From positions 3,090,545-3,154,544 of the forward strand of contig OZ245359.1 in assembly GCA_965226385.1 (NCBI GenBank): a stretch of 64,000 nucleotides of DNA, read 5' to 3'. Position 1 is the first letter of the stretch, and every line of letters begins with the position of its first letter. The stretch is from Bryobacterales bacterium. Lineage in GTDB: Bacteria > Acidobacteriota > Terriglobia > Bryobacterales > UBA6623. This document shows positions 14,773-64,000 of the stretch, piece after piece. Position numbers and translations under genes: made by a program. The notes beneath the pieces were generated by a model, which was given only the letters and a program-made list of their open reading frames with translations, was not told the DNA's origin and did not search any database.

Positions 14773-15018
14773 GGTCTCCTGAATGTCGGCGATCTGCCGC
14801 CGTGTCAGGCGCTTGCCGAAGAATGTCGTGGATTTAAGGTTCTCGATCAGCGGGTCCATCGGGTAGCTCCCAGTACTCCATACCTAGGGTGGCAAATTGG
14901 GGCACAAAAGTTAAGCGCTTCGGGAGAAAAAATTGAGGGAGGCATATCCTTTTGAAAATCAACAACCTATCGGTCCACCGACGGGCTATCTACCGGATTA
15001 TCTATGCGAATGCCATTG
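14773..15018 (-). mobile_element. Solo 246-bp remnant of the IS4-like element (transposon right end plus first ~30 codons of its DUF4338 ORF)
   Basis: Direct repeat of 39854-40099 with 8 mismatches by hand alignment. It ends in the same terminal sequence cgaatgccattg. Confidence 0.85.
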
Positions 15019-15409: not shown

Positions 15410-15782
15410 CGAAAGGTCTACTCTGCATCCGTACTCAGGTTAATCTGAATGTCACCTTCAGGTGAAAGTGAACTACTTGGACCAAGTAGCGTGGACTGGT
15501 TAAATGGTGCCTGAGGGTGTGGATGTCTTTCAAGTGTTGGACAGGAGACAGTGGATATTATCATCTCGTCTTGGGTTCGTTTTGGAGCGTGATCAATTGT
15601 TCGCCTTGGGTAAGCGTTCGGACGGGCCGTGGAACGAGTATAGGGCCGGTCAACGGTTACATATTGTCAAACTGTGGAATTTCCTGTAATTCATTCATAA
15701 ATCTATATATTTCATAAGTATCCGACGTCCCACCGGCCTTCACTTGTGAATTCCCTGCGCTAAAGGCTTGTAGCCTGTCATA

Positions 15783-16748: not shown

Positions 16749-16769
16749 AGGTATAATTGCAACAACATT

Positions 16770-17552: not shown

Positions 17553-17567
17553 ATTGTGTGCAGAAGT

Positions 17568-18878: not shown

Positions 18879-19159
18879 CTTGATAGTTTAAAAAGTCTGG
18901 ATTCCATGGAAAGATGGCAAGGACATTCCTTCAACAGGAGAGCCTGGTAGAAACATGAGGTCTTCAGTTCAGCAATAGCGAATGTTCGCGTAGTAGTAGG
19001 CCTGCCTTACTCCGCGCAGTGTCCTGCTGTATCATTGCAATGGGATCAATGGCTCGACCTGTTTGGTGTTTTTGAGGTTCCCTGGGAGGATATGGATTTA
19101 TGAGAAATTCAAACAGTTTCAAGTTGCAAACAGCCAACAAGGTGGGAATCCGGAAAGAG

Positions 19160-20038: not shown

Positions 20039-20209
20039 TACTGGCGGGTGTGATTGGAAACAATAAGCACAACTTGAACGTATTGATCTCAGGGGCATAG
20101 TTATTTTCCGGTTATGCCTCGTATTCAGGAACAGAGCCTTGTAGGATAGGACGAATTCCTGAATACACAGACCAGGACTGTGATTTCGGTACAAGAATCA
20201 CAAATTGCG

Positions 20210-21226
20210 ATGAAGGTCTCGGTTGTTATCCCGCATTTGAACCGCGCAGACCTGCTGGATAAGGTGTTGTGCAGTATCCACATGCAACAGCTTCCTGTGG
20301 GCACCCAGTGTGAAGTCATCGTTGTGGATAACGCTTCCAGGGACTCATCTGCTGAAGTGGCTCGGTTTCATGGGGCAAATTTGATTCAGTTGGAAAGCAA
20401 CCAGGGAGTCAGCCGGGCACTGAACCGCGGCATTAGTGAGTCAAGCGGAGACCTGGTTGTGATTCTGAACAATGATGTCGAGCTGACTCCGGACTGGACC
20501 AGAATAATGATGGAATCCGTGCAGAAACCGAACATCTGGTTTGCAACCGGGAAGCTGTACAACGCCTCCCGGACACATTTGCTCGATGGGGCAGGTGATG
20601 CAGTCTGCAGAGGGGGTACGGCCTGGCGTGTAGGACATGGCAAGCAGGATGGGCCTGGGTTCAACTTTGCACGAGGTACTTATTTTCCAGCGGCCACAGC
20701 TACGATATTCCGGCGTGAGTTTTTTGAGCAAGCCGGGCTGTTTGAAGAGTCCTTTTTTGCTTATTTGGAAGATGTTGATCTTGGAATCCGCGCGGCCTCA
20801 CTTGGTTTGCAGGGAGTATATGAACCGGAAGCCATTGCCTGGCACCGGGGAAGTGAAACATGGGGATACTGGAGTAATAGTACTGTTACCGCGATTACCC
20901 GTAATCAATTGCTTCTGCTGGCGAAGCACTACAGCGGGTCCATGCTGCTACGATTCTGCATTCCAATCCTGACCGCACAAAAGCTCTGGTTGATGATGGT
21001 GCTCTCTCATGGCAAGATTGCGGCCTGGTTGCACGGTATGTGGTCAGGATTACGTGAAATTCCACGTATGCGTCGCAAGGGTTCCGGGTCCCGTACTGAT
21101 CGATTGCAGAATGTGCTCATCCAAAGCGAACGTGAAATTGCCATTTATCAGGAATCTGGGGGCTGGGACAGGTACTGGAAATGGTATTTCCGACTGGCTT
21201 GGCCAAAGGTGACAAGGCCAGAATGA
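20210..21226 (+). CDS. Glycosyltransferase family 2
   Basis: MKVSVVIPHLNRADLL...VVDNASRD...NQGVSRALNRG...LNNDVE is a classic GT2 N-terminal domain. Confidence 0.85.
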   Translation: MKVSVVIPHLNRADLLDKVLCSIHMQQLPVGTQCEVIVVDNASRDSSAEVARFHGANLIQLESNQGVSRALNRGISESSGDLVVILNNDVELTPDWTRIMMESVQKPNIWFATGKLYNASRTHLLDGAGDAVCRGGTAWRVGHGKQDGPGFNFARGTYFPAATATIFRREFFEQAGLFEESFFAYLEDVDLGIRAASLGLQGVYEPEAIAWHRGSETWGYWSNSTVTAITRNQLLLLAKHYSGSMLLRFCIPILTAQKLWLMMVLSHGKIAAWLHGMWSGLREIPRMRRKGSGSRTDRLQNVLIQSEREIAIYQESGGWDRYWKWYFRLAWPKVTRPE

Positions 21227-22182
21227 ATAGCCCGGTTGCAGCAATCATCGTGGCTTATCATTCGCAAGAGGTATTGCCTGCCTGCCTGGAAGCGTTGCAG
21301 GGCAAGGTTGAGCAGACCGTTGTTATCGATAACACACCCGGTCAGGCCTGTGTCCGGATGTTTGAAAACACCTATTCCTGGGTTCATTGGATTGGCAATG
21401 CCGAGAATCGAGGATTTGCAACCGCAGTCAACCAGGGCATAGCTGCGACAGATTCCAAATTCGTACTGATGCTCAACCCGGACTGCGAACTTCAGACCAG
21501 GTTGGATGCGCTCATCGATGCATGTGAAGCAGAGCAAGTCGCTGCTGCAGGCGGTTTGCTGGAGAATCAGGATGGCACTGCCCAGGCAGGCTTTACAGCA
21601 CGTTCACTGCCTACGCCCTGGATGTTGGCTTTCGAGGTGCTTGGTATCAACCGCGTCTGGAAACGCAATCCCTTGAACCGACGGTATCGACTGCTCGACA
21701 TGGACCTGACCCGGGCAAACGAGGTCGAACAGCCAGCTGGGGCATTTCTCATGTTGCGTAGGTTGGCATTGGCAGAGATTGGAGGACTGGATGAGCAATT
21801 TCATCCGGCATGGTTTGAAGATGTGGACCTTTGTCACCGACTTCGGGAGGCGGGCTATGTAATCCGGTACACGCCGGACGCAGTCGCCAGACACCTTGGA
21901 GGTCATGCGGTTCACAACCTCTCAATGCATTCACGCCTGCAAGCTTGGTATGGTGGATTATTGCATTATGCCGTGAAGCATTACGCTCTCGGTACGCATA
22001 GGTGGCTACGCTACACGGTCTTGGTTGGGTTGGTCTTGCGGAAGTTGCTTTGCTTTTTTCGAATTGGTAAACATGCAGAATCCGGTGCATACAGTAGGAT
22101 GTTTCGCCTGATCCGCAAAGGCTTTCCCGAAACACAATCTGCTCCGAACACTATCCATGAAGATGCATCCCCATTTGCATAG
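21223..22182 (+). CDS. Glycosyltransferase family 2
   Basis: VAAIIVAYHS...VVIDNTP...NRGFATAVNQG...LNPDCE...FEDVDLCHR. The ATGA overlap with the upstream GT at 21223-21226 suggests translational coupling. Confidence 0.85.
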   Translation: MNSPVAAIIVAYHSQEVLPACLEALQGKVEQTVVIDNTPGQACVRMFENTYSWVHWIGNAENRGFATAVNQGIAATDSKFVLMLNPDCELQTRLDALIDACEAEQVAAAGGLLENQDGTAQAGFTARSLPTPWMLAFEVLGINRVWKRNPLNRRYRLLDMDLTRANEVEQPAGAFLMLRRLALAEIGGLDEQFHPAWFEDVDLCHRLREAGYVIRYTPDAVARHLGGHAVHNLSMHSRLQAWYGGLLHYAVKHYALGTHRWLRYTVLVGLVLRKLLCFFRIGKHAESGAYSRMFRLIRKGFPETQSAPNTIHEDASPFA

Positions 22183-37913: not shown

Positions 37914-39074
37914 TCAGGCTGTGGTTGCAGTTGCGGTTGCCTTGCTGGACCTCCATTTGCTGGCGGGTTTCCGGGAGAGGCGCGGGAAGGAGCGGTTCGG
38001 GCGCTGTCGCTGGCGGCACGCGGCGATGCCGGCGAGGATCCGTTCGACGGTCTTGCCCAGCATGGCGGCGTGCTCCAGGAACAGCCCTTCCAGGTGCCGC
38101 GCCACGGTGCGCAGGCTGCTCTTGAAGTTCGCCTGCATCGCCGGCTGGCCCGGGTCGGCCCGGAAGCTCTCCTCGCTGCGGTTGGTGAACAGCCGGGCCA
38201 GGGCGATCAGGCTGAAGTGGGCGAACAGCTCCTGCTGGACCGTGCGCTCGGTCTGGCCGTGGAACTCCTCCACCGTCAGCAGTTGCTTGGAAATCTTGTA
38301 CAGCTCCTCGATGCTCCAGCGGCCGTGGTACAGGTCGGCGAGGTCCCGCACGCTGTAGCGCTGCCGGTCCAGCAGGGTGGTGGCGAGGGTGTAGGTGGTT
38401 GTGCCGACGGTGTACTTGATGAGGCGCACCCGGCAGGGCTGGAAGGCGGCCTGCGGGTGCTGGCGCAGTACGTCGGCGCTGGGCGTGACGGTGACCGTGT
38501 GATCGGTGCGGTCGCCGAGGATGAAGTCGCGGAACAGGGCGGAGGCGTTCCGCTGGAGGCGGAAGACGGCCTGCAGGCGGCGTTCGGCGTGGGCGTGCAG
38601 CAGCTGGAAGGAGTAGTAACCGCGGTCGTAGACGACGACATCGCCGGGGGCGAGCGCCCGGAGGTGGGCCAGGGCCGCCAGGCGCTCGTTGCCATGGGCG
38701 AGCAGGTCGAAGTCGACCGGGATGCGGGAGCGCAGCTGGTAGAGGCAGCTGAGCAGGCCCTGCGGGTAGTGGGCGTTCGATGAGGGCGTGCGGTAGCCCT
38801 CTTGGGCCAGCGGGCGGGGCAGGTTCAGCTTCGAGCCGTCGACGGCGAAGATCCGGTGGCCGTGCCACAGTTGGCCAGCCGTCTCCCGCGGGGCTTGCTC
38901 GAGAATCGCCCGGTGGATACGCCGGAACACGTCGGCGTGAATCTTGGCGCGGGCCACGCAGATTGACGAGGCCGATACCGGCTGAGGCTGCGGCAGCGCG
39001 ACCCCCAGCCGGCGGCACTGCTCCCACAGCTCGGCCAGGGTCAGGGCATAGCCCTGGCGGTCGGGCGCGAACAC
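37914..39074 (-). CDS. IS4-family DDE transposase
   Basis: 386 aa. IFAVDGSKLNLP and VVVYDRGYYSF (DDE aspartates) are present, together with YHGRWSIEELYKISK, which fits the IS4 Y-2-R-3-E-6-K signature. GTG start. Confidence 0.85.
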   Translation of the reverse strand: MFAPDRQGYALTLAELWEQCRRLGVALPQPQPVSASSICVARAKIHADVFRRIHRAILEQAPRETAGQLWHGHRIFAVDGSKLNLPRPLAQEGYRTPSSNAHYPQGLLSCLYQLRSRIPVDFDLLAHGNERLAALAHLRALAPGDVVVYDRGYYSFQLLHAHAERRLQAVFRLQRNASALFRDFILGDRTDHTVTVTPSADVLRQHPQAAFQPCRVRLIKYTVGTTTYTLATTLLDRQRYSVRDLADLYHGRWSIEELYKISKQLLTVEEFHGQTERTVQQELFAHFSLIALARLFTNRSEESFRADPGQPAMQANFKSSLRTVARHLEGLFLEHAAMLGKTVERILAGIAACRQRQRPNRSFPRLSRKPASKWRSSKATATATTA

Positions 39075-39940
39075 CAGTCGGGGTGCAGCGGGTAGACGTA
39101 CACGCCCTTGGGTGTCTTGGCCGGTGCCGTTCCCCTGGCCTTGCGCCCCTTCGTCATGCCGAGGAACTGCCAGTTGGCCGCCCGGTAGCAGGTCGCCCGG
39201 TAGCGCTCCAGGTCAACGAAGGTTTCCACCAGCACCGGCCGGTAGCCGTGCCGCTGCTGCCAGTCCTGCGGCAGCTGCTGCAGCGCCAACCCCAGCGCCT
39301 TCGACGCCAGGAACTTGACCTGCACCCAAGGAAACAAAAGGAACCGGCTGTTGCTGATGACCAGGTCGAGGTGCTTGCGGTGCGCCTGGCCCTGCCAGCC
39401 GATCCAGGTGTCGCGGCACTCCAGGTTGCGGGTGGCGAAGCCGAACAGCAGGCAGCCGAGCTGGCGCCCGTGTCGGTCGCGCAGGAAGTAGCGCAGATGC
39501 GCGCCGATGGGCTGGCGGTAGCCCTGGGGATGGTAGCGCTCGACCCATTCGTTCCACTCCGCGACAGCCTCCCGCTCGGTCACCGCCTCCAGGGCTAGCG
39601 GCGTCAGCTCGGCGAGATCCTCGCGGAGAGGGGGCTGGGGCGCGGTCCGCTCGCCCGGCGTGATCGGCCTCTGCGGGCCCCGCCCGGGCCTAGCGCTGCG
39701 GGCTGGCAGGGTCAGGATGCCGAGCCGCTCCAGCTCCTCAAGCAGGCGCGTCGCCAGATGAATGCGGTTGCTGCCCTTCGGCGTCTGCCAGCGCAGGTGC
39801 TCGCAGATGGTGTGGCCCAGCTCGGTGCGGCTCAGCTTCGGGAACAGCCCCACGGTCTCCTGGATGTCGGCGATCTGCCGCCGTGTCAGGCGCTTGCCGA
39901 AGAATGTCGTGGATTTAAGGTTCTCGATCAGCGGGTCCAT
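39041..39940 (-). CDS. DUF4338-like protein (domain family of Druantia DruA), first ORF of the IS4-like element
   Basis: RYHPQGYRQPIGAHLRYFL..., NSRFLLFPWVQV, HGYRPVLVETFVD..RYRATCYRAANW and KGVYVYPL match DUF4338 blocks as I remember them. It overlaps the transposase ORF by 34 nt in another frame. Confidence 0.65.
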   Translation of the reverse strand: MDPLIENLKSTTFFGKRLTRRQIADIQETVGLFPKLSRTELGHTICEHLRWQTPKGSNRIHLATRLLEELERLGILTLPARSARPGRGPQRPITPGERTAPQPPLREDLAELTPLALEAVTEREAVAEWNEWVERYHPQGYRQPIGAHLRYFLRDRHGRQLGCLLFGFATRNLECRDTWIGWQGQAHRKHLDLVISNSRFLLFPWVQVKFLASKALGLALQQLPQDWQQRHGYRPVLVETFVDLERYRATCYRAANWQFLGMTKGRKARGTAPAKTPKGVYVYPLHPDWCSRPTARAMP

Positions 39941-44178: not shown

Positions 44179-44303
44179 TGGAGTATCTACGAAGTTTCGG
44201 ACTATTTGGGCTGTGGCAGCTATGGCAGTCGAGTGGTCCCGGAGGTCGAGTGCACTTCATGATTGCTGAGAAGAGCAGCGATGTCAAGGTCAAGCGGGTG
44301 TCC
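44179..44303 (-). repeat. 125-bp repeat, copy B (inverted partner of 10959-11083)
   Basis: See copy A. Weaker similarity (cagcgag) continues a few bases past 44303. Confidence 0.9.
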
Positions 44304-51652: not shown

Positions 51653-54180
51653 TCAGGACAGTTCAGGTGAATGTGTATCTGAGTTGGACAGCAGACTGAC
51701 CAGCAGACCAACTCCTACACATGTCAGGATGCCCACCATTCCATAGAGGAAAAAGTGCAGGTTGGTATTTTGCTGTACCCAGAACAGGACAACCACACTT
51801 GTCAATGCACCTGTGATCGCTCCCCGGCTATTTGCACTGCGGAAGAAAATTCCCAACCCAAACAGGCCGGCAAGACCACCTCCCAGTAACCCCATCATGC
51901 CTTGGAAGGCATCCCACAGGGAACCGATTTCGAATGTTGCCAAGGCGATTGATGTTGCGGTTGCAATGATCCCCAATCCCGCTGTAATGATCCTTGCCAG
52001 CCAGAGCCGACTGGCATCACTGGAAGCTGGCCGGAAGCACACATAGAAATCAGTGACCACAGCTGCCGAAACACTGTTCAGGCTGCTGTCGAGTGTCGAC
52101 ATCGAAGCAGCGAATAGAGCTGCAATCAACAGTCCGGCAACTCCAGCCGGTAACTGCTGTGAGATAAACAGCGGGAAGATGGAATCGGTTGGCAGGGCAG
52201 GGTTCAGCAGTCCCGGGTTTGCACGATAGAAAGCCCATAGCCCTGTACCCAGCAGGAAAAGCGTCAGAGTTGATGGAATGATCAGGATCGCATTTGTCCA
52301 GATGGATCGTGCTGCAGCTTTTTCATCCTTTGTCGTGAAATAACGCTGTACAACAGCTTGATCCGAGGTGTAGGGCACCAGGTTCAGGAACAGGTTGCCG
52401 ACCAGTACCACCCAGACAGCGGTTGTTGTCCAGTCCCAGGTCCAGTTAAACATGTGAAACTTGTCATACTCCATGCCAGTAGACAGGATTCCTGTCAGCC
52501 CACCCTCCGTTTTCATTACAAGAATGAGCAGGCTCAAAAGTGCGCCCCCATATAAAACAAATACTTGAACAACATCTGTCCAGATTACGACTGTGATCCC
52601 ACCCATGACGGTATACAAGGTGGCAAGCAGCCCCATCACAAGAATGCATGTGTAGACACTGATTCCGGTAACAGTAGAGAGTGCAATTGCCGGCAGGAAC
52701 AGGACGATCGCCATTCGTCCAAGCTGGTAAAGGATAAATGACAAGCTGGCATACAACTCACTTGCAGGTTGAATCTGCTCTCTAGATACTCATAGGCGCT
52801 CATCATCTTGACCCTTCGGAAATGGGGCAAGTAGAAGAACACCACAGGGAATGCCACCAGCACTATTGACATCTGGATCAGGAAGTAACCCCAGTCAGTT
52901 GAGTAGATCTTGGCGGGGATGGCCATGAAGCTGATAGATGACAACTGGGTCCCGAAAATCGAAAGGCCAGTTGCCCACCAGGGCATACGTTGGCCTGCCA
53001 GGAAAAACTCATCAGTACTGGACCGCTTGCCTGCGTAGTAGAGACCCATCATGACCAGGACTGAGAAATAGGAGATCAGTATGGCGTAATCCAGCATTGC
53101 GAAACTGGACTCAGTAGCCGAAAGAATTCCGGAAAGCACCGTAGCGACGCTGAGCCCTGAGTTGCTGGCACCTCCTGGAATGGTCAGGGTCTCTTGCCAA
53201 GAGACGGCACTTGTCATGCCTAGCCCACTTGGTATTTGCTCTAGTTCTACCCATGTATCCGTGATGGTGTGATAGCTATGGACTGTGCTGGAAAAACTGA
53301 GCGGTGTTGGTCCTGGACTGGTATCTATCCCCTGGGTTGAGCTGCTATCCCCTCCCAGTACAAGGACATGTGAAGGACCGAGGGGAGCAGCAACGGCTCC
53401 AAATGCCTGGTGAGGGAAATCTGCTATACGAGTCCAGCCCTGATCAGGATGATACCGGTGGGAATCACTGAGGCTGTGAAGTATCGGGTTACTGCCGGTA
53501 TCTGTGGATAGTGCTGCACCACCTAACAGGTAAAGAGTTCCATCCTGAGCAACAAGGGAAGCCAGGATGCGTTCTGGTCCACTCCATGAACCAGCAGTTT
53601 TCCAGACCGGTATGGGCTCACTTGGGTCGAAAGTAACAAGACTGTTCAGAGCACTGGTCGAGGATGGTGCATTCTGACCACCAGCCAGGTAAAGAACGTT
53701 GTTGAGTACCGCAGCAGTTGCGTACGCACAGGGTTGCGTTAAAGCTGGTAGCGGTTCATATACGAGATCTTCACCTTCAAAGCGAATCCGCCAGACTGAG
53801 TCGTGATGATTGTTTCCGTCTGTTCCGCCTGCGAATACAGCATAGTCACCAAACGAGGCTACTCCACCAAAAGCCAGAGGTTGTGGCAGTGGAGTTGTTG
53901 GGCGCCATGTCCCGGAAGGTGTTTCCAGCACCCAGGCATGATCCAGGACAACAGCTTCGCCATCTTGTGGCAAGGGAGCACTATTGCGTGATCCACCGGC
54001 AACAACCAGCCTGTCGTCAATAACGGCGATGAAGGCGCCGGCAGTCCCTGCAGAATCCGGTAACTCGGCCAACTGCGACCATGCCAGTGGCTCACCGGTC
54101 ACACCCTGGAGAGTCCCGGTAGCAAGGACCAAAAGCCCAAGGGTCAATGCAGCACACTTGAATTGCAGCAGGCCGTCCAA
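51653..54180 (-). pseudogene. Kelch/beta-propeller (NanM-like) domain fused to a sodium:solute symporter (SSS family), split by a 1-nt frameshift
   Basis: Track ORFs 52636..54180 and 51653..52756 overlap. The N-frame reads ...YEYLESRFNLQVSCMPAC and the C-frame continues ...LYASLSFILYQLGRMAIVLFLPA. The indel lies within about 52745-52765. The signal peptide uses a TTG start. This may be a sequencing error rather than a true pseudogene. Confidence 0.8.
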
Positions 54181-54316
54181 ACTTCATCAATCCTACCGGA
54201 ATGTTGTCACCGGTATGAACCATCCATGACTGTCCTGCGGGTCTATCAATGCTTGATTGCAAATGAAGGGGTGGCTGGTGATGAGACAGATACGCCCGTT
54301 GAATGATGTGCCAGTT

Positions 54317-55750
54317 TCAGAGGCGGTGCTCTTTCCAGCTTCCACGCTGGAAGAACATATAACCGACCGCGACCCAGATCAAACCTGAGGACACTACAGC
54401 CCCGTACATGCCTATCACGCCCATACCGTAAGGCTTGGCAAGGAAGTACCCCAAGGGTAACTGCCAGAACCAGTAGCAGAAGAAGTTGATCCATGCCGGA
54501 GTGGTTGTATCGCCAGCGCCGTTAAACGCCTGGGCAAAGACCATTGAAAACCCTCCGAAGATATATCCAGTACTGAGTATCTTAAGGCTAAGGATGCCGC
54601 TTGCTATGACTTCAGGCTCGCTTGTAAAAAACCGTACTAGCGGGCCGGAAAAGCTCCAGAAGATGATAGTGATCACGCTGAGCATGCCCACATTCACAAA
54701 CCCGGTCAGCCATACGGCGCGTTCAGCTCTATCCGGTTTTTTGGCTCCAAGGTTCTGCCCCACCAGGGTTGCCGCAGCGTTGCTGACTCCCCATGAAGGC
54801 AGGATGGCAAAATGGATCAGACGCAGGGTAACTGTATAGCCAGCTAATGTCGTCTCTCCAAACAAAGCGACAATACGCGTCACACCAAGCCAGGCAGCTG
54901 TTGCTACCAGGAACTGCAACATGCCGGTAGTGGATACGTTCAGTAACTGACGAAAGATAACTGGATTCCAACGCTTGTCTGCACCCACAAGGGTAATCCG
55001 GGCATCGGGGCGGAACATCTTGGCTAGCTGGTACATAACTCCCACACTGCGACCCACTGTGGTTGCGATGGCTGCACCCAACAGGCCCAATGCCGGGATG
55101 GGCCCTGCCCCGAAGATCAACAGTGGGTCAAGGACAATGTTGATCAGGTTTGCGATCCACAGTGCTCTCATGGCCACGGGTGCATCCCCTGCACCCCTGA
55201 AGATGGCATTGTTCAAAAACAGCAGGAAAATCGTGACCGAACCGGCAAACAGAATAGTTGTGTACATATAGCCGGCAACAACTTCTTCCGAACCACCCAT
55301 CCAGCGCAACATATTGGGAGCCAGCAGGCTGCCGCACAGGCTAATGGGGATGGAGATAAAAACGCCGGTCATGATGGCGTGCCAGGCCACTGAAGCTGCG
55401 ACCTCCGGTTTTCCTTCTCCAATGCGTCTGGACACCAGGGCGGTGGTGCCCATGCAAAATCCCATGATGATGGCAAAGACCAGGATGATGACCGCTGCTG
55501 TCAGCCCTACAGTTGCAATGGATGCGGAGCCAAGTTTGCTAACAAAGTAAATGTCCACAAGCCCGAAAGTGGATTCCATGACGAGCTCAAGCATCATAGG
55601 TATCGCAAGCATCACGATGGCCTGTGGTATCGGAATTTTTGTGTAATCCGCTCGCGTACCCCGGAAGGCAGAGGGTACGGCACGCAAGAGCGAGATGACT
55701 AGAGTCTTCAGATCAGCAGACTGTTGCCCTGGAGTAGTGTCCTGTCCCAT
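54317..55750 (-). CDS. MATE family efflux transporter
   Basis: There are 12 predicted hydrophobic segments. IPQAIVMLAIPMMLELVMESTFGLVDIYFVSKLG is a typical MatE N-terminus. The start is taken at MGQDTTPG. Confidence 0.85.
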   Translation of the reverse strand: MGQDTTPGQQSADLKTLVISLLRAVPSAFRGTRADYTKIPIPQAIVMLAIPMMLELVMESTFGLVDIYFVSKLGSASIATVGLTAAVIILVFAIIMGFCMGTTALVSRRIGEGKPEVAASVAWHAIMTGVFISIPISLCGSLLAPNMLRWMGGSEEVVAGYMYTTILFAGSVTIFLLFLNNAIFRGAGDAPVAMRALWIANLINIVLDPLLIFGAGPIPALGLLGAAIATTVGRSVGVMYQLAKMFRPDARITLVGADKRWNPVIFRQLLNVSTTGMLQFLVATAAWLGVTRIVALFGETTLAGYTVTLRLIHFAILPSWGVSNAAATLVGQNLGAKKPDRAERAVWLTGFVNVGMLSVITIIFWSFSGPLVRFFTSEPEVIASGILSLKILSTGYIFGGFSMVFAQAFNGAGDTTTPAWINFFCYWFWQLPLGYFLAKPYGMGVIGMYGAVVSSGLIWVAVGYMFFQRGSWKEHRL

Positions 55751-55942
55751 TGATAATTTAGGACTGTAGTAGGAAGTAACGAGCCAAAGATTTATTGTCA
55801 CACGGACATACAACTTCAATCGATCCTGACATCGGTCCCTAGTCGATTTGTCTCAGGTGGCCAGCGATGCCGCCGACTTCTGTAAAGCAAGGTCCGCTGC
55901 GGGTTTGACTTGTCAATTAAGCCTAGCTGTCCTGAAACGTGA

Positions 55943-58900
55943 TTACTGTATATCTGAGTTGCCTTGTAACTCCGCTTGCTTGAGAACCCAATTGTGCAGT
56001 ATCTGGAATCCGTCATCGTCGGGTTCGTAACGCTGCCCTCCCTGATGGCCTTCTTCTTGCCCACTTTGTATGTTCAGGGGTTTGCGGAGAAAGAGGCTCA
56101 GTTCCGGATTGTCAATTTCTACCCTTTCCTGTAACTTGCGATAGTTCGCCAGCAATTCGGCTGGACCGATATGCCCTGCGCCATCAGGCGGGTTCAGGTA
56201 CAACGTGGGAACCCTGCCCGGAACCCCGTGACAGGAAATGCAGGCGTGGTTGTCATGCTCGCTGATCTTGTTCATCTCAAAGAAAACATGGTCCTTGAAA
56301 TAAAGGATGTCCTGAATGAACTCGTCAGTTGGCTCAAGACGGCGCACAATCGTTTTAGATGAATCCTGTGCCTCCTGCTTGATCAGGTCACGAAGATCCT
56401 TTCCATACTGCTCGTCATCATTGGCCAGCAGGTTTTCCAGGCGAGTTCGGATTATTGCGACAGGCTCTTGTTCTACATAAGACATTACCGTCTTACGGAG
56501 TTCAGGATTGCGTCTCAGGGCCGGGGCCCCTGCCAGATTTACTGCAATCTCTCGTATCTCAACGGGGGTGTCAGGAGAGAACCAGCGTATGAACATGTCC
56601 AATACGTGTATTTTTGCGGCGATGATCGGGTCAATGCCCTCGCCTCCTGGCCCGTCCTGTTCGGATATTATCTCGGCACTAAGGTTAGGGGCAAGCTTGA
56701 GATAGTCGATGCCGAATTTGTACTCCGGTTCTGCAACCTCGCTTGTTCCGAACATCTTGATGGTGAGAACGCTGCGGCCTTTTGGTAACTCGAAAACACC
56801 CAGTGCCATGGGGCCAGTGGAAGTCACTTCCGGGCGGTAGAGGTCGAGATGCTCAGCGATAACGCGTCCGTTGAAACTTATCTCGACAATCCCATGCGAA
56901 GCGCCATAGAGGAATGCACCAATGAGATCGTATGAACCAGGCTGGGGAACTTCCAGGGCGAAAGATAGCTGTGCTCCTGTTTTGCCCTCTTCCCAGAGGA
57001 GTGCGCCGTTGTGGCTTGCGACCCCACCTGGGATCGTCTGTTCCGTTGTCCTTCCAAAAGTGAGTTGTGTGATTTCCAGTTCTTCAGCCTCCAGCGCACC
57101 CTCAATCGCCTCATCGAGTGTGGGTCCTCCCTCTTGATAAGACAGCATCCATTCGGTAGAGTCGAGCCAGAGCCGTGGATCGCTCGAGAGGTGACTGAAT
57201 GCTTCCTTGCGATGAAGTGTCCGATTCTCACCCAGAATGCGAGCAACCAGATTTTTGGGCAGTTTTGTGGTATCACCAAGTCCAGTCTGGGTTGCCGGAC
57301 GTCCCAGCGAGCTTGCTGGTATGACTTCTCGGTTGGATCTCGCGGTCTCGCTTATCCCTTGCAACATGCGATAAAAGGCGGATTCTTCATCCTCGGCGAT
57401 GCCTTCAAAGTCCCATTTCACTCGTGCCAGGAAGTTCGCCACAGCATCCGCATCTAACTCTCTTCCGGCTGCTGCATATTGGGTCATCACCCGCAGCAAG
57501 GGCTCTAACATGCTGGTGAGGGCAGGCAGGGATAGTTCGCCAGGATTCGAGAGGGCGCGTGCTGCAATAGCAACAATGTCCTGATCGGCAGTCAGTAACA
57601 GTTCGAGAATTGTGTCCTGTAGCGGTTGGTATGTGATATTCCTAGCACCTTCCAGGGCAATCGTTTTCCAAGGGGTCTTGCCCTCAATTTCGTTTTCGTA
57701 TACCTCAAGAACTGCCTTACCGTAGAGCTCAGCCGCACCGGGTGTACTGTAGGCAAACTGGCCTGGGCTTTGCTGATTGGATCGCTCCATATAGTGTGAG
57801 GCTGCCATTGCGGTCAGCCGACGATCGACAAGCCTGCGCTCTTCCACCGTCGCAGACTCACGCCATAGAGCAAGATCCTGATACAGGGTTGAGAGTTCGG
57901 GGTATTGCTGTTCGAGGTACTTGTCGCTGGTGATGTTGTTCATTTGCCCGTTTACGATAAACAGTGAAATGGTCGAATAGCGCAATGCCATGTCCACGTT
58001 GGCTTCGGGTTCCGGGCGGGTCAACACGTCAAGCCAAGCCCGATTGATGGGCTCGCGCAGTGATGGATTCCATACCCACCAGTGCCAGGCAGCCTTGCTG
58101 GCATAGGCCCTTACGCCGGGATGATGATCGACCATTCCCGCAGTAAGTACACTTGTCAACTCGGTGCTGTCTGCTTTGCTATTCGAGCCAGCCAGGTAAG
58201 CTCGGGTGATCAGTGCATGGAAGACGGACTGACGGGCCCGGTCGTTTCCGTTGCGGTATGTGTCAAAGAGAGCTTCCCATCCCACATCGTCGAGCAGAAG
58301 CTGGCGTAATGACCAGAAAGCCGCTTCCCTGCAGCTCTTGACCGGATCATCGAAGTGTTGGACGAGGGTCGGGACGGCTGCAGGGACCCTAGCCCCTCCC
58401 AGCCCCAGCAAGCCGTAGAGTCTTACCTGTGGATGGCTGCTCTGTGCTGCCTTGATGTACAGGTCTGCGAAACGCGGGTCCCCTGTTGCCTGGGCATTTC
58501 TGGCACGCATCAGGGATGCCAGAAAGGAATTGTCAGCACGGGGTTCAAACTCTTCGCTGGATTGTTCTTGCGGTTTATTTGGATAAAGTCGCCCGAGAGC
58601 ACGTAGCACGTACGCAGTGGTCACGAAACCGGTTGCAGCCGCTGCATTCCACAATCCGTAGGGGTACTGATTCTGCAACAGCCATTGAACGCCCTTCTGG
58701 ATTACTGGATCGTCCGGTCTGTATCCAGCAGCTTCCAGTGCGATCAGGGATACAGCTGTAGGTGCTGGGTAACTGTTGTCCGCGGGGCGCACCCATTCTC
58801 CATCCTCGTTTTCATGACCGGGGATGAAGCCCCATCCACCGTCCTCATGTTGTAGTGCAAGTACTCGACGCAGATCCTTCGAGACCATGTTTTTGAAATC

Positions 58901-59146
58901 TTCCTGGAAGCGTTTTGCCGCAGCAATCCGCTGGGGTGAATTTGTCAGCTTTGCAATTTGCTCTACGTAATCTTGTGGCCAGATGCGATAGAAGAATTCG
59001 ATCCGGTGGCTGAAATCGTCTGCAATGCGAGCCTTGTCGTCCGTGGCAACAATCTTGTGCGCTTTCTCTTCAAGAGCGAAGAAGTAACGTGGATCCCCAA
59101 AGTCTTGCCAAGCGCGCTCCAGTATCTCGGCAGCAAATTTGAACAC
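55943..59146 (-). CDS. Large uncharacterised protein: prenyltransferase/terpene-cyclase-like repeats, HEAT-like repeats, beta-rich module, C-terminal CXXCH domain; probably the 3' part of a longer gene
   Basis: 1067 codons from a GTG start, with no signal peptide. LQHEDGGWGF and LLQNQYPYGLWN are alpha/alpha-toroid repeat motifs. The heme motif CISCH lies at 56228-56242. It is in frame with the upstream ORF across a single TAG. Confidence 0.6.
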   Translation of the reverse strand: MFKFAAEILERAWQDFGDPRYFFALEEKAHKIVATDDKARIADDFSHRIEFFYRIWPQDYVEQIAKLTNSPQRIAAAKRFQEDFKNMVSKDLRRVLALQHEDGGWGFIPGHENEDGEWVRPADNSYPAPTAVSLIALEAAGYRPDDPVIQKGVQWLLQNQYPYGLWNAAAATGFVTTAYVLRALGRLYPNKPQEQSSEEFEPRADNSFLASLMRARNAQATGDPRFADLYIKAAQSSHPQVRLYGLLGLGGARVPAAVPTLVQHFDDPVKSCREAAFWSLRQLLLDDVGWEALFDTYRNGNDRARQSVFHALITRAYLAGSNSKADSTELTSVLTAGMVDHHPGVRAYASKAAWHWWVWNPSLREPINRAWLDVLTRPEPEANVDMALRYSTISLFIVNGQMNNITSDKYLEQQYPELSTLYQDLALWRESATVEERRLVDRRLTAMAASHYMERSNQQSPGQFAYSTPGAAELYGKAVLEVYENEIEGKTPWKTIALEGARNITYQPLQDTILELLLTADQDIVAIAARALSNPGELSLPALTSMLEPLLRVMTQYAAAGRELDADAVANFLARVKWDFEGIAEDEESAFYRMLQGISETARSNREVIPASSLGRPATQTGLGDTTKLPKNLVARILGENRTLHRKEAFSHLSSDPRLWLDSTEWMLSYQEGGPTLDEAIEGALEAEELEITQLTFGRTTEQTIPGGVASHNGALLWEEGKTGAQLSFALEVPQPGSYDLIGAFLYGASHGIVEISFNGRVIAEHLDLYRPEVTSTGPMALGVFELPKGRSVLTIKMFGTSEVAEPEYKFGIDYLKLAPNLSAEIISEQDGPGGEGIDPIIAAKIHVLDMFIRWFSPDTPVEIREIAVNLAGAPALRRNPELRKTVMSYVEQEPVAIIRTRLENLLANDDEQYGKDLRDLIKQEAQDSSKTIVRRLEPTDEFIQDILYFKDHVFFEMNKISEHDNHACISCHGVPGRVPTLYLNPPDGAGHIGPAELLANYRKLQERVEIDNPELSLFLRKPLNIQSGQEEGHQGGQRYEPDDDGFQILHNWVLKQAELQGNSDIQ

Positions 59147-59206
59147 GACGTTCGGTCCGAAGTTCGAGCCTCGCCCAGCCGCATTGATGCCCTTCGGATC
59201 CGCGGT

Positions 59207-60721
59207 CTAGAGTATGTAGTTGGCGGTGCGCCGTTGCCAGTGTGCATGCAGTTTCTTCGGGGTATGAGTGCGTTCGTGAAGAACGATATTCCTGCCCGCT
59301 ACACGCGTACCGGCGGGGCCGTCGCCGAGGTCATTGGGCGCTACGCTTGTGTTCACGGCGGCGTCTTTGAGTTTGTTGGTCAGCCGTAGCGACTCGTACA
59401 TGGTGTTAACGACGCGCCTGTAGTTCTGCTCGACCCCATCTGGTCGGTAGCCGTTCCGAAAGGCATCCGCAACTCCCCACACACCGCTTTGGGTGTGGCA
59501 ACTCATGCAGTTCTCGCCGAAAAGGGCAGTGGCATCTCGCACCCTGCGGTGAGATGCGATGTTACGGGGCCGATGGATCAACCACGCATCAATCTCGGCG
59601 AGGTGATAAAAGATACCCTGTTGCACCGCCTGTACCGGATCGTCGTAGGGAGCAGGATTGAACAGCCTTACCTGCATCTCGTAATGTGGCTGATTCGCTT
59701 CGACCCGCAGGTAGTAGGTGTGCCCGGGTTCGAGCTTGCGGGTTATAAAGCTTCTGAACGAACGATCCTGCTGATGGGCCCGTTCATTGATAGCCCGCCC
59801 TTGTTCATAGGTATACACCTGAACGGGACCTGGAATGGTCGTGGCTGGTGGATGAACGTATGGCAGTGGATTGAAATTGGAGAAGTCAAAGGAGTTCGGT
59901 ACATCGCGCTTCTGTAACTCTTCCTCGCTCGGAACACCTTCCCTGTAGAACCGAATCCTGGGACTCACAACCGGCTCCACTAGCTGCAGGTTTGCGCTCA
60001 GAAACTTCGGGCTGTCGCCCTTGTAATGTATGCGGTACCAGTCATCGGGAGTCTTGCCTGCGCGGGTATTGTTGTAGTACTCAATGTCGTCCGCTCCCCC
60101 GATGACATGCATGACCTGGTCTTCTTCGGAAGGCTCGAACAACAGGTCGATTGCCTGTTCCGGTGCGTTGTTCGGTTCTGCTTCCAGTACCAGTTCCTGA
60201 CTTGCGAGTGCCTCGACAGGATGCAAGTCAATTGTGATTTGCGACCCATTCACGTGTGGGGTACTTGTTGGCAATGGAGTAGTAAGAGGCGCCAACCCGG
60301 TGTCGTGGGGAATTTCTCCGAGCGGTTGGGGGTGCTCCTCAAGGCTCTTGAGCTTTAGCGTGTAAGTCCCGGAAATCGGGGCCCTGTAGACGAGATAAAC
60401 ATCCGGGTCAAGAGCATGCAGTACCTTGGACCAATCGGTGGTGGCACTGACCCCTTCGCCACGTTCTGCTTTGTAAGTAAATTGTGGCAGATCAGGTCCA
60501 TCCCAGACTGCTTCGATCCGGGAATTTGGTAACAGGGCAGAAGGTTGGTCGATCCGTTCACTCAACTCCAGTGCATCGCCCTCCTCCAATGTCCAGCTCC
60601 GGGTCCAGGGACTGTCAAGGGTATGCGTTTCTGAGAACTCAACAACGGCTGCGCTCGCCAAGGTAACCCCAAAAAACAGCAGGAAAGAAGTGAGGAAACG
60701 AGTAGTAGAGCAAGGCCTCAT
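59207..60721 (-). CDS. Secreted uncharacterised protein with pre-peptidase-C-terminal-like (EPNN..A / DWYR) domains and one CXXCH motif
   Basis: The start is taken at MRPCSTTRFLTSFLLFFGVTLASA (signal/anchor). LEAEPNNAPEQAIDL...DDWYRIHY resembles PPC/collagenase-type beta domains. The heme motif CMSCH lies at 59495-59509. It ends in TAG at 59207-59209. Confidence 0.6.
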   Translation of the reverse strand: MRPCSTTRFLTSFLLFFGVTLASAAVVEFSETHTLDSPWTRSWTLEEGDALELSERIDQPSALLPNSRIEAVWDGPDLPQFTYKAERGEGVSATTDWSKVLHALDPDVYLVYRAPISGTYTLKLKSLEEHPQPLGEIPHDTGLAPLTTPLPTSTPHVNGSQITIDLHPVEALASQELVLEAEPNNAPEQAIDLLFEPSEEDQVMHVIGGADDIEYYNNTRAGKTPDDWYRIHYKGDSPKFLSANLQLVEPVVSPRIRFYREGVPSEEELQKRDVPNSFDFSNFNPLPYVHPPATTIPGPVQVYTYEQGRAINERAHQQDRSFRSFITRKLEPGHTYYLRVEANQPHYEMQVRLFNPAPYDDPVQAVQQGIFYHLAEIDAWLIHRPRNIASHRRVRDATALFGENCMSCHTQSGVWGVADAFRNGYRPDGVEQNYRRVVNTMYESLRLTNKLKDAAVNTSVAPNDLGDGPAGTRVAGRNIVLHERTHTPKKLHAHWQRRTANYIL

Positions 60722-60848
60722 AGTTCTGTGGACTCGCATGGACTTCGGGAAATCAGGTTCGGGTAAATCATAGCACCGCATCCTGGAGTGAATCTCATCA
60801 TTTGGCTCCAACATTCAATTATCACTTGATGGCTGAGCCTGTAAGGAT

Positions 60849-61592
60849 TCAGAGAGTACGGAGGTGGAATCCACCGTCAACATCAAGTACCTGACCGGTA
60901 GAGTAATCCAGTTGTCCATCGGCAATTGAACGCACTACCCGGGCGACGTCCGCAGTGCTTCCCAGTCGTCCTTGCGGCAGCAGACCATCAGCAGCCAGTT
61001 GCTGGTACTTGGCAAGCACTGGAGCAACCATATCGGTTTCAATGATTCCTGGCCGGATCTCGAACACATTGATGCCCTCCCCGGCCAATCTGCTTGCAAA
61101 TAATTGCACTGCCATGCTTAGTCCGGCTTTAGAAATGCAATATTCGCCACGGTTCATGGATGCGGTGTATGCAGAGATCGATGTGATGAACACGATCTTG
61201 CCAGACGACTGTTCCAGCATTAGTCTGGAGGCAGCCTGAGTGAGAAAATAGGGACCTTTCAGGTTGGTGTTGAGTACTTCGTCAAAGCTCTCTTCGCTTG
61301 CATTCAGGATGTCGTTACGTTCCCGGGGAGCCATGCCGGCGTTGTTCACCAGCAAGTCCAGGCGACCATACTCGGACTTGACATGGTTGATTAGATTCTG
61401 GCGATCTTCACCTGAACCCACATCCATTTGAAAAATCCCGGCACCACATTCCTGCTGCAGGCTTTCAGCTGCTTCCAGATTGCCCCGGTAGGTCCCAAGT
61501 ACTTCGTGCGTTCTTGCCAGCTCCATGGCGATGGCACGACCGATGCCACGACTGGCACCTGTAACTAAAGCAGTGGGCCTTGCATCTGCCAT
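60849..61592 (-). CDS. Short-chain dehydrogenase/reductase (3-oxoacyl-ACP reductase-like)
   Basis: TALVTGASRGIGRAIA is the TGxxxGxG motif. NNAG and SISAYTASMNRGEYCISKAG (YxxxK) are also present. The start is taken at MADARP. Confidence 0.85.
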   Translation of the reverse strand: MADARPTALVTGASRGIGRAIAMELARTHEVLGTYRGNLEAAESLQQECGAGIFQMDVGSGEDRQNLINHVKSEYGRLDLLVNNAGMAPRERNDILNASEESFDEVLNTNLKGPYFLTQAASRLMLEQSSGKIVFITSISAYTASMNRGEYCISKAGLSMAVQLFASRLAGEGINVFEIRPGIIETDMVAPVLAKYQQLAADGLLPQGRLGSTADVARVVRSIADGQLDYSTGQVLDVDGGFHLRTL

Positions 61593-61634
61593 GGCTGTTC
61601 TCCAGTATTTTCCTGCATTCTGTACGCGTGGCAA

Positions 61635-63059
61635 TCAGACCAGGATTGGCTGTACGATCTCGCCGTGTACATCGGTCAGCCGAAAATGTCTGCCTTGGTA
61701 CTTGAAGGTCAGCTTCTTGTGATCAACCCCTAGCAAATGCAGAATGGTTGCGTGCAGGTCGTGAACGCTGACGGGGTTTTCGGCGATGTTGTAGGAAAAA
61801 TCATCCGTGGTTCCATAGCTCATGCCTCCACGGATTCCACCACCGGCTAGCCACACAGAGAAACAGCGGGGGTGATGATCCCTGCCGTATACCTCTTGAG
61901 TCAGTTTTCCCTGGCAGTAGACAGTGCGACCAAACTCCCCGCCCCAGACAACAAGCGTTTCATCCAACAGTCCGCGTTGTTCCAGATCCTTGACCAGTGC
62001 AGCGGATGCCTGGTCCGTCTGCCCGGTTCTGGATGTCAGGTTTTGTGGCAGGTTGCTGTGATGGTCCCAACCACGGTGAAAGAGCTGTACACAGCGCACC
62101 CCTCGCTCCACGAGCCGACGTGCCAGCAGGCAGTTACTGGCGTAGGTTCCCGGTTTGCGGGAATCATCGCCATACATTTCGAACACATGTTCGGGCTCCG
62201 AACTTAAATCCGTCAGTTCAGGAACTGAGGCTTGCATCCTGTAAGCCATTTCATATTGGTCGATGCGGTTCTCAATCTCGGGGTCGCCGTACTCGTCAAA
62301 CCGCAGTTTGTTGAGTGCTGACAGGTCCTCAAGATAATGGCGTCTGTCCTCACGGCTGAACCCTTCGGGATTATTGAGATACAGTACCGGCTCACGTCCT
62401 GCCCGGAACTTGACGCCCTGGTAGCGGGTTGGCAGGAAGCCGCTTCCCCAGAGTCGGGAATAAAGTGGTTGCCCTGAACTGCCCAGGGAAACCATCACAA
62501 CAAAAGAAGGCAGATTGCTGCTTTCGCTCCCCAGTCCATAGGACAACCAGGAGCCCAGACTCGGTCGTCCGGCCAACTGGTACCCTGTCTGCAGGAACGT
62601 GATGGCCGGATCGTGGTTGATCTGCTCAGTGTGCATCGAGCGGATCACAGAAATCTTCTCACCAATGGATGCTATGTGCGGTATTACCTCGCTGAATTGC
62701 TGACCTGTTGCTTGATTGCGGATGAAATTGAACTTTGAAGCTGCAACCGGGAAACTGGTCTGTGCTGCAGTCATGCCAGTGAGGCGCTGTCTTCCCCGGA
62801 TCGAATCAGGCAACTCGGATCCCTGCATGTTGGAAAGCGCAGGTTTCGGATCGTACAGATCCATCTGTGAAGGCCCACCGGACTGGAACAAGTAGATGAC
62901 TCGTTTGGCTTTCGGGGCAAAGTGGGGTAGCCCTTGGGGTGCTGTCGCAGCTCCAAGATCTTCTTGCAGCAGGTTGGATATGGCAGCAATCCCCAGACCG
63001 CTCGCTGTGCGTGAGAAGAAATGCCTGCGGGTGTGCTCAAGCCAGATTTTACTGTTCAT
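61635..63059 (-). CDS. DUF1501 domain protein (sulfatase-like fold) with Tat signal
   Basis: TRRHFFSRTASGLGIAAISNLL, FQSGGPSQMDLYDPKP and WGGEFGRT...GRDHH are classic DUF1501 blocks. Confidence 0.85.
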   Translation of the reverse strand: MNSKIWLEHTRRHFFSRTASGLGIAAISNLLQEDLGAATAPQGLPHFAPKAKRVIYLFQSGGPSQMDLYDPKPALSNMQGSELPDSIRGRQRLTGMTAAQTSFPVAASKFNFIRNQATGQQFSEVIPHIASIGEKISVIRSMHTEQINHDPAITFLQTGYQLAGRPSLGSWLSYGLGSESSNLPSFVVMVSLGSSGQPLYSRLWGSGFLPTRYQGVKFRAGREPVLYLNNPEGFSREDRRHYLEDLSALNKLRFDEYGDPEIENRIDQYEMAYRMQASVPELTDLSSEPEHVFEMYGDDSRKPGTYASNCLLARRLVERGVRCVQLFHRGWDHHSNLPQNLTSRTGQTDQASAALVKDLEQRGLLDETLVVWGGEFGRTVYCQGKLTQEVYGRDHHPRCFSVWLAGGGIRGGMSYGTTDDFSYNIAENPVSVHDLHATILHLLGVDHKKLTFKYQGRHFRLTDVHGEIVQPILV

Positions 63060-63062
63060 TGT

Positions 63063-64000
63063 CTATTCACGCGTAATGGTTTCATCAAGGTTGAGCAGCA
63101 TGCTTGCTACTGCTGTGTAGGCAGCCAGTTCTGCAGTCTGAATAGATTTGTTGCGGGGATGCTCCCCGACAGACAGGTATTTTCCTGCATCTTCAGGAGT
63201 AGTCAGGTAGCGGTCCCGGTAACGGTTCAGGGTTGAGAGCAGGATGCGGTTCTCACTTTCAGCAGGTTGACGTGCCGTGGCTAGCAGGAAACCATAAGAC
63301 AGCCGTGTCTGGTCATTGTCCCCGCCTTCCAACAGCATTCGTTCGGCATATAAACGGGCAGCCTCGTTGTAGGTGGGGTCGTTCATCAGATTCAGTGCCT
63401 GTATTGGTGTATTGGTACGAACCTCCTGCACCACACAGGTCTCCCGCGGTGAGGCGTCGAATGCCAGCATGGCTGGCGGCCCCAGTGTGCGCTTCCAGAA
63501 AGTGTAAAGACTGCGGCTGTAAAGGTTCTTGCCGTGATCGTTTTCGTAGGCTTTCCAGTTGGAAAGTTCTTTCCACAGTCCAGTGGGCTGGTAAGGCTTG
63601 ACGGATGGGCCTCCAGACCCCGTCGACAGCAGTCCGGCAATGGACAGAGCCTGGTCCCGGATGGATTCTGCAGGGAGTCTCTGCCTGGGAGCACGTGCCA
63701 GCAGCAGGTTCTCGGGGTCTTTTTCGGACAGTTCCGGAGTCAGCTTCGAGGACTGACGATAAGTGGCACTTGTAACGATTGTCCGTAGCAAATGCTTGAT
63801 ATCCCAGCCGCTTTCAATGAAATCGACAGCAAGCCAGTCCAGCAGTTTCGGATGTGAGGGAGGCGCACCCTGGGAACCAAAATCCTCCACAGTCGAGACA
63901 ATTCCCCTTCCGAACAGCATCTGCCAGAATCGATTGACGGTGACTCGTGATGTCAACGGATGTTGTTGGTCGGTCAGCCAGTGAGCGAGTCCCAGCCGGT
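63063..64000 (-). CDS. DUF1553 (PSD1) domain protein, C-terminal part; 5' end beyond the window
   Basis: The frame is open to nt 64000. NPLTSRVTVNRFWQMLFGRGIVSTVEDFGSQGAPPSHPKLLDWLA is the canonical DUF1553 motif. Pairing with DUF1501 is typical. Confidence 0.8.
   Translation of the reverse strand, partial: RLGLAHWLTDQQHPLTSRVTVNRFWQMLFGRGIVSTVEDFGSQGAPPSHPKLLDWLAVDFIESGWDIKHLLRTIVTSATYRQSSKLTPELSEKDPENLLLARAPRQRLPAESIRDQALSIAGLLSTGSGGPSVKPYQPTGLWKELSNWKAYENDHGKNLYSRSLYTFWKRTLGPPAMLAFDASPRETCVVQEVRTNTPIQALNLMNDPTYNEAARLYAERMLLEGGDNDQTRLSYGFLLATARQPAESENRILLSTLNRYRDRYLTTPEDAGKYLSVGEHPRNKSIQTAELAAYTAVASMLLNLDETITRE

Follow-up and report, generated by a model that had tools for sequence, protein, structure and literature searches.

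Organization of the locus

The DNA considered here is a 64,000-nucleotide stretch of contig OZ245359.1 from a Bryobacterales bacterium (assembly GCA_965226385.1), which we refer to as the window and in which all positions are numbered. Its minus strand carries a long gene that is interrupted by a single in-frame TAG codon. Two open reading frames (ORFs), 59207..60814 and 55943..59146, lie in one frame on this strand, and the stop codon at 59209..59207 is all that separates them, as the first-pass annotation of the window had claimed and the ORF coordinates bear out. The open stretches on either side of the TAG run from 60721 to 59210 (504 codons) and from 59206 to 55946 (1087 codons). The described succession of the TAG, 20 sense codons (TADPKGINAAGRGSNFGPNV) and a GTG at 59146 is likewise present in the sequence. 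In the public protein collection, the two parts are separate calls on one 4,427,227-bp contig, P0121 with 504 residues and P0122 with 1067.

The ATG at 60721 (MRPCSTT...) is most likely the true start of the gene, because near-identical intact homologues begin there. Read from this codon, the gene would comprise 1592 codons, with the TAG as codon 505 and a 5' fragment of 504 codons. The earlier estimate of about 1600 codons was right in assuming a single long gene, the length from ATG 60721 being 1592 and not about 1620 codons. The parts of the interrupted gene are as follows.

59207..59209, minus strand: premature stop TAG, codon 505 of 1592; CAG (Gln) in conspecific contigs, with C-to-T at 59209 on the coding strand
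59210..60721, minus strand: 5' fragment of 504 codons, with predicted signal peptide, three beta-sandwiches, the first haem motif and five toroid helices; public record P0121
59147..59206, minus strand: the 20 codons from the TAG to GTG 59146, within the most conserved block of the family
55943..59146, minus strand: 3' fragment of 1067 codons, from GTG 59146 to the TAA at 55943-55945; public record P0122
55943..59146, minus strand, predicted content: the remainder of the toroid, an ARM/HEAT solenoid, a CBM6/35-like sandwich and a C-terminal haem domain

Homologues are encoded by a single gene

A homologue search with the fused translation as query, in which the stop was replaced by X, returned 655 hits, the best 120 of which were listed. 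All of these 120 are single proteins that cover 82-99% of the fused query, and 118 of them are 1558-1675 residues long with a coverage of 91-99%. The best match, P0001, has 1592 residues, is 99% identical and reads ...ANYILQTADPKG... across the position of the stop. The genomic loci were surveyed in a scan of one genome per species, which yielded 68 loci from metagenome-assembled genomes (MAGs) of Bryobacterales/Acidobacteriota; with two contigs from the species of the window (L001 and L002), 70 loci were available. A single ORF of at least 1560 codons is found at 66 of the 70. The question raised in the first-pass annotation, whether the orthologues are one gene or two, is thus answered by single genes, and no homologue among those examined is split at the site of the stop.

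The 120 hits and the window sequence were aligned with MAFFT, and column counts are given over 119 sequences. The column of the TAG holds Gln in 116 of the 119 homologues and lies inside the block where conservation in the family is highest, RTANY(V/I)LQTADPxGINAAGxGSNFGPNVVFKFAAE.LERAW, in which many positions are 97-100% identical. From the TAG to GTG 59146, most of the 20 codons are 97-100% conserved in the homologues, and the invariant columns that follow the stop include, in the numbering of alignment A2, T505, P508, N512, A513, A514, G517-G521 and N523-K527. Because this 20-codon "spacer" is near-invariant, it is to be regarded as coding sequence and not as an intergenic region. Judged from the sequence, the two ORFs are halves of one gene, their continuity of frame being far beyond chance. 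The family is widespread in the Bryobacterales (Acidobacteriota) and is without a described function. The family matches that we saw are confined to MAGs of Bryobacterales/Acidobacteriota, and several of these genomes have two paralogues.

The stop codon results from a CAG-to-TAG change

The two conspecific metagenome contigs, L001 and L002, come from different samples, are 99.7% identical to the window at the nucleotide level over 10-12 kb and encode the intact protein. Within the gene, 13-14 differences separate them from the window, and CAG versus TAG at 59209 is the only nonsense one. Comparison of these alleles indicates that the stop is a C-to-T transition on the coding strand at 59209, by which the CAG of Gln-505 became TAG. 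Among the conspecific contigs that cover the site, all have CAG except L071 and L083, which have TAG; accordingly, the B-type haplotypes all have C at 59209, and T is common to the window, L071 and L083.

The support for the TAG consists of assembled contigs, L071 from a MAG and L083 from a Logan run-level assembly. Contig L071 (GCA_047517725.1, contig JAKZSI010000106.1) has the same ...ATACTCTAGACCGCG... and stays in frame for 176 nucleotides more, while 8 of its 4970 nucleotides differ from the window, including changes in codons 22, 55 and 84. It encodes a second 504-residue protein, P0132, which falls in the same 90% cluster as P0121. Contig L083 was assembled from run ERR14231557 alone and agrees with the window at every position over 14.5 kb (100% identity), TAG included. 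Because the same TAG is found on the different haplotype of L071 as well as in L083, an error of base calling or polishing is very unlikely, and the variant is real. The mutation is probably not brand new either, since two haplotypes carry it. A systematic error of the methylation type was also considered and rejected: the differences between the window and L001, inspected by eye, mix transitions and transversions and have no common motif.

Export and translation signals of the two halves

The export signal is predicted from hydropathy, which places a signal-like hydrophobic stretch at residues 9-21, followed by A-S-A. The Kyte-Doolittle maximum (2.26) falls at residues 9-19 and is the sole transmembrane-like window in the whole protein.

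60650..60721, minus strand: predicted Sec signal peptide, residues 1-24, comprising MRPCSTTR, a hydrophobic core and A-S-A, with cleavage before A

The 3' product starting at GTG 59146 begins with a charged, non-hydrophobic sequence and has no hydrophobic N-terminus by hydropathy. The analysis of both halves therefore agrees with the first-pass annotation, according to which only the upstream half has a signal sequence. Its further statement, that the CISCH motif at 56228-56242 lies in a 3' half that is devoid of a signal, is borne out by the coordinates and by hydropathy. The attachment of haem to CXXCH motifs in cytochrome c maturation requires export. The 3' product nevertheless carries an invariant CXXCH.

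No Shine-Dalgarno-like motif was found in the 25 nucleotides (AGGCTCGAACTTCGGACCGAACGTC) that precede GTG 59146, and the next in-frame starts lie 86 and 118 codons further on. Signals for export and, at GTG 59146, for ribosome binding are thus both missing from the second ORF.

Other lesions of the gene

Intact alleles are present on about 19 conspecific contigs, and about 5 of the 24 sampled contigs carry lesions. Besides the TAG, three different lesions were found in the species. In L072, a 4.77-Mb contig (ERZ28763718 ctg125578), the sequence matches the window without a difference (100% identity) between 64000 and 59452 and then passes into a mobile element (11271-21278) that encodes an integrase with an Arm-DNA-binding domain, two DDE transposases, Fic and a Toprim/DUF3991 protein. 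In L082 (ERZ25072854 ctg34805_3x_l, 6855-7766), which represents a minor strain with 3x coverage, an insertion sequence (IS) transposase is located at window position ~59405. The third lesion, in L073 (~5388-5393), is a deletion of ~77 bp at window ~57034-57110 that shifts the frame and has no Ns at its junction. The neighbouring genes PSD1, DUF1501, SDR and MatE are full length at all conspecific loci.

Parts of the L072 element recur elsewhere in the window: an 858-bp piece is 98% identical to window 38224-39081, and a 72-bp repeat is found twice, at 44179-44250 and at 11012-11083.

In the table of haplotypes, the TAG stands on the window-type haplotype (window, L083 and L071). The derived substitutions V55E and E84K occur in the window/L072 lineage only, position 55 being V, L or I in 116 of the 119 homologues. 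This distribution fits an order of events in which the TAG arose first, further unconstrained changes followed and, in L072, the element was inserted last, although recombination could give the same haplotype pattern. Over ~12 kb (52000-64000), the window and L001 differ by 23 nonsynonymous and 7 synonymous changes, the TAG and a stop-codon difference in a neighbouring symporter gene of the SSF family being excluded. This nonsynonymous excess in all genes suggests that purifying selection is weak, or divergence very recent, across the genome.

Copies of the gene are also broken in other species, at 4 of the 68 loci. In L063 (~7126), a TAG replaces an invariant Glu just before a CXXCH motif; L036 (~9295) has an in-frame TAA, L040 (~6216) a frameshift, and L030 (6585-7755) an insertion of ~1.2 kb. 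Because the types of stop are mixed, these lesions do not point to a recoding that is specific to TAG. Several genomes, the closest relatives among them, have two paralogues, which would make the loss of one copy tolerable; if the genome of the window has a second paralogue too, this would account for the dispensability. The gene seems to be dispensable and decaying in the lineage of the window, because in the remaining strains the gene is either intact or inactivated by lesions of another kind. A search of the literature on pseudogenes in sponge Bryobacterales found nothing relevant.

Predicted domain structure

Structural models were generated with AlphaFold2 from 119-sequence alignments for the N-terminal half (m2c8296e1a0ec) and the C-terminal half (m772d92e9a073) of the fused protein. 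The domain features and haem motifs are located as follows.

59495..59509, minus strand: first haem c motif, CMSCH, residues 405-409; C404, C407 and H408 (alignment A2 numbering) are invariant in 119 sequences
58586..59638, minus strand: predicted 12-helix (alpha/alpha)6 toroid, approximately residues 362-712, from the helix list of the model, Foldseek and Pfam PF13243
56687..57076, minus strand: CBM6/CBM35-like beta-sandwich, approximately residues 1216-1345, from Foldseek and phmmer
56228..56242, minus strand: second haem c motif, CISCH, residues 1494-1498; the block ACISCHGVPGRVPTLYL is invariant or nearly so in the 119 homologues

The first-pass annotation had recognized the CISCH motif of the 3' half and missed the CMSCH of the 5' half at 59495-59509. 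In the model, the first CXXCH is situated in the second helix of the predicted (alpha/alpha)6 toroid and not in a classical cytochrome c domain, which is an unusual architecture. The second invariant CXXCH is located ~100 residues from the C-terminus.

The N-terminal model (pLDDT 82.9, pTM 0.86) consists of a signal helix, three beta-sandwiches and twelve helices within residues 361-711; the limits of the toroid are drawn from this helix list and not from the coordinates of the model. A Foldseek search matched the sandwiches to those of the ColG collagen-binding-domain type (5iku), and the helices, over ~340-366 columns, to (alpha/alpha)6 toroids that include the squalene-hopene-cyclase-like 8pak (E = 1e-4), drimenyl diphosphate synthase, GH105 and epimerases; the root mean square deviation (rmsd) to 7xqz is 5.1 Å. 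Residue 504, the last before the stop, is the end of model helix H489-504, which is the fifth of the 12 toroid helices, a placement that is weakened by a local pLDDT of ~40-77 around residues 440-520. On this model the stop would bisect the toroid domain, and neither fragment should fold alone, because the chain is cut after the fifth of 12 helices.

The C-terminal model (pLDDT 83.7) displays an ARM/HEAT solenoid and the CBM6/35-like sandwich; its C-terminal region is helical and holds the second haem motif. The sandwich superimposes on the xanthan-binding module 7ehg with a Foldseek TM-score of 0.8, an rmsd of 2.5 Å and 23-24% identity, and phmmer matches the module to 7ehg and 6f2p. A sequence search of the PDB with the protein gave repeat-level and module-level matches only. 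The only Pfam matches above cutoff are HEAT_2 and PF13243, the C-terminal repeat region of squalene-hopene cyclases (37.5 bits against a cutoff of 26.1). PF13442, which is named for many of the homologues in precomputed annotations, scores 17.6 bits against a cutoff of 27 in the 5' part of the window gene. The equivalog models of the cyclases are far below cutoff (TIGR01507, 41.5 bits against 431; TIGR01787, 35.3 against 322.7).

Taken together, the gene would encode a putative exported two-haem protein, with a putatively ligand-binding toroid, a solenoid, a carbohydrate-binding-like module and haem attachment predicted from its motifs, that is outside all characterized families. We tentatively propose that it acts on a periplasmic or extracellular glycan, an assignment in which our confidence is low.

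Interpretation of the stop codon

The locus is very probably a nonsense, loss-of-function (pseudogene) allele of a single gene, the product of which would be a Sec-exported two-haem protein of 1592 residues, and the allele segregates in the natural population. Translation would stop at the TAG after residue 504. The 504-residue N-terminal fragment would still be exportable, and with five of the 12 toroid helices it is expected to be misfolded or degraded. The 3' two-thirds of the gene is expected to remain untranslated or, if it is made, to be trapped in the cytoplasm without haem, because it lacks a ribosome-binding site and an export signal. The first-pass annotation had proposed one continuous exported polypeptide; this is retained as far as the single gene for an exported protein is concerned, but the full product is not expected here beyond trace read-through. 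As to the origin of the TAG, it had offered a recent nonsense mutation, a base-call error or a leaky stop. The first of these is upheld as a real nonsense mutation by the CAG of L001 and L002. The other two are not: the TAG recurs in L071, with different linked variants, and in L083, and it is an ordinary terminator here, replaces a Gln of the relatives and is accompanied by neither an RNA structure nor an Rfam match.

Four points weigh against reading the locus as a decaying loss-of-function allele. The ratio of nonsynonymous to synonymous changes is 9:3 in the gene versus 14:4 in its flanks, so that these counts do not discriminate, and gene-specific relaxed selection, for which no statistical signal is seen apart from the lesions themselves, was rejected as a conclusion from them. 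The enrichment of lesions over the four neighbouring genes is marginal (rough P ~ 0.03) among loci that were ascertained through the gene itself. Contig L083 may share reads with the assembly of the window, which leaves L071 as the only strictly independent witness of the TAG. Finally, by analogy with E. coli, near-cognate read-through may yield a trace of protein with the ancestral Gln. A related view, that the gene is being lost repeatedly and independently within one species while its four neighbours stay intact, that this loss is not neutral decay but is favoured by selection, for instance because the protein is costly or is a target of host or phage, and that the UAG allele is a hypomorph with trace amounts of Gln-inserted protein, is in our opinion unlikely.

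It is very improbable that the TAG is leaky, subject to programmed read-through, reassigned or suppressed, and that a full-length functional protein results, be it in small and regulated amounts. Such a mechanism would be in line with a downstream frame that has stayed conserved and entirely open, and with the persistence of the allele onto two haplotypes. Moreover, the residues that E. coli incorporates at UAG by basal near-cognate decoding are Gln, Tyr, Lys and Trp, commonly Gln (PMC4333366), and Gln is the ancestral residue here, provided that the observation can be transferred to this organism. The stop itself, however, is not conserved: no in-frame stop is seen at this position in the orthologues, which have Gln in 116 of 119 sequences, as do most of the conspecific contigs. 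The insertions and the deletion in the gene of other strains are, furthermore, beyond rescue by read-through.

The use of TAG in the window also argues against recoding. It terminates 13 of the 49 other long ORFs, and the genes that end in it include housekeeping genes: thiolase, Ffh, ribosomal protein S16 (identified through gene tables), a thiamine diphosphate (TPP) enzyme, a PQQ dehydrogenase and a molybdopterin (xanthine-dehydrogenase-like) dehydrogenase. The TAG of the thiolase comes 3 residues past a complete Thiolase_C match, and Ffh and S16 are also of canonical length. At every locus, the TAG of the PSD1 gene directly precedes the start of DUF1501. Codon reassignment was considered in a scan of the window for long same-frame segments around one stop and was rejected, since the other pairs of real genes proved to be adjacent genes, as in the case of PSD1 with its TAG and DUF1501, which are called separately at all loci. 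Several other same-frame pairs lie on strands or in frames without a gene.

No suppressor or pyrrolysine (Pyl) tRNA with the anticodon CUA was found within the 64-kb window, where the sole tRNA is Arg-ACG. A stimulatory RNA fold was not detected around the TAG: the 106 nucleotides from 6 upstream to ~97 downstream have z = +0.61 relative to shuffled sequences, which gives no stable downstream structure, and no Rfam match is found at the site at E <= 1. The base at position +4 is A, which is not among the weakest termination contexts in E. coli. Nothing points to programmed read-through at TAG 59209..59207, and the case leaves the current understanding of the genetic code and of translation unchallenged.

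There is even less to be said for a functional fission of the gene into two separately expressed subunits that assemble, the second being translated from GTG 59146. Such a split corresponds to public gene calling, which has the two proteins P0121 and P0122, and the second ORF, a long one, shows no interruption. On the other hand, no examined homologue is split at the site, and the second subunit would lack 20 codons that hardly vary among the homologues. GTG 59146 has no Shine-Dalgarno motif, the second product has no export signal even though its invariant CXXCH needs haem attachment in the periplasm, and the cut would fall, according to the model, inside the 12-helix toroid. Lastly, an error of sequencing, base calling or assembly polishing in an organism that has CAG can practically be dismissed: it would be in keeping with a lone transition in an ORF that is highly conserved and in other respects intact, and with the CAG of L001 and L002, but the TAG is also found in L071, an independently produced MAG contig with different linked single-nucleotide polymorphisms, and in the run-level assembly L083, and the contig names of related assemblies (of the ctgN_92x_c type), which do not concern the platform of the window itself, suggest high-coverage long-read assembly.

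Neighbouring loci

The region adjoining the broken gene (window 51653-54180) appears from its sequence to be a second decaying locus. A Kelch/NanM-like ORF (54180..52636, minus strand) reads straight into the N-terminal part of the SSF symporter, and the other 327 SSF codons lie in a different frame (52636..51653, minus strand). The symporter looks frameshifted in the window, in L001 and in L083-L086. L001 (10637-12667) is without 190 bp (window 53961-54150) that encode the signal-peptide region of the Kelch protein, and L076, L078, L079 and L080 are without ~1.9 kb (window ~51658-53522).

Elsewhere in the window, an ORF at 39044-39940 (minus strand) matches the Druantia defence protein DruA (PF14236, E = 5e-32) and adjoins the transposase-related segment 38224-39081.

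Comparison with known systems

Bacterial pseudogenes that arise from one nonsense mutation have a stop where a single substitution has altered a conserved sense codon, a frame that stays open beyond it, and intact alleles within the species. All of this holds here and there is no essential difference, the loss of function being the step that we infer. As in the strain-specific loss-of-function alleles known from host-associated bacteria with decaying genes, extra independent lesions affect the gene (the IS, the mobile element and the deletion) and the nearby Kelch/SSF region. A host-associated lifestyle, in sponges, is suggested by the labels of the records alone (Langseth_Bin, and sponge-derived bins among the relatives).

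The systems of programmed read-through or UAG reassignment (pyrrolysine, amber suppressors, TAG-to-Gln phages) share with this locus an in-frame UAG in conserved coding sequence, and the ancestral residue here, Gln, is the one that near-cognate tRNAs insert most frequently at UAG. They differ from the locus in that the stop here is unconserved, TAG ends ordinary genes of the window, and no suppressor tRNA or structure was found.

At the level of the protein, the likeness to the toroids of squalene-hopene cyclases and prenyltransferases (PF13243; 8pak, 1gsz) consists of the PF13243 match above cutoff and the predicted 12-helix toroid, and that to 8pak and drimenyl diphosphate synthase holds at the fold or superfamily level only. 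In contrast to the cyclases, the protein has only one toroid, set in a 1592-residue exported chain with beta-sandwiches, ARM/HEAT repeats, a CBM6/35-like module and two CXXCH motifs, and it reaches 41.5 bits with TIGR01507, for which 431 are required. Neither the equivalog scores nor the single toroid of the model agree with a full-length equivalent of a cyclase.

A further comparison is offered by the planctomycete-type PSCyt1/PSCyt2/PSD1 proteins, exported multidomain cytochromes c that are paired with DUF1501; they are found in the same genomes and are similarly large, with a signal peptide and a CXXCH joined to non-redox domains; the PSCyt/PSD1 proteins and the product of the broken gene are also alike in having no known function. 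In the species of the window, a PSD1 (1003 residues)/DUF1501 pair is immediately upstream of the broken gene. Unlike these proteins, the product of the broken gene is matched by neither the PSCyt nor the PSD1 models of Pfam, and a PSD1-like gene lies within 6 kb at only 12 of the 68 loci. Synteny was rejected as a clue to function, since the neighbourhood of PSD1, DUF1501, SDR and MatE is not maintained at the homologues of other species.

Implications

The locus is a textbook nonsense-mutation pseudogene allele and as such an ordinary finding. For annotation, it means that the two called proteins of 504 and 1067 residues are to be merged and flagged as one pseudogene, which avoids the creation of spurious families. 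It also illustrates, cleanly and on a small scale, how a gene decays step by step in a natural population of an uncultured Acidobacteriota species, and it draws attention to an uncharacterized, well-conserved family of exported proteins of ~1600 residues that have a CXXCH motif inside an (alpha/alpha)6 toroid.

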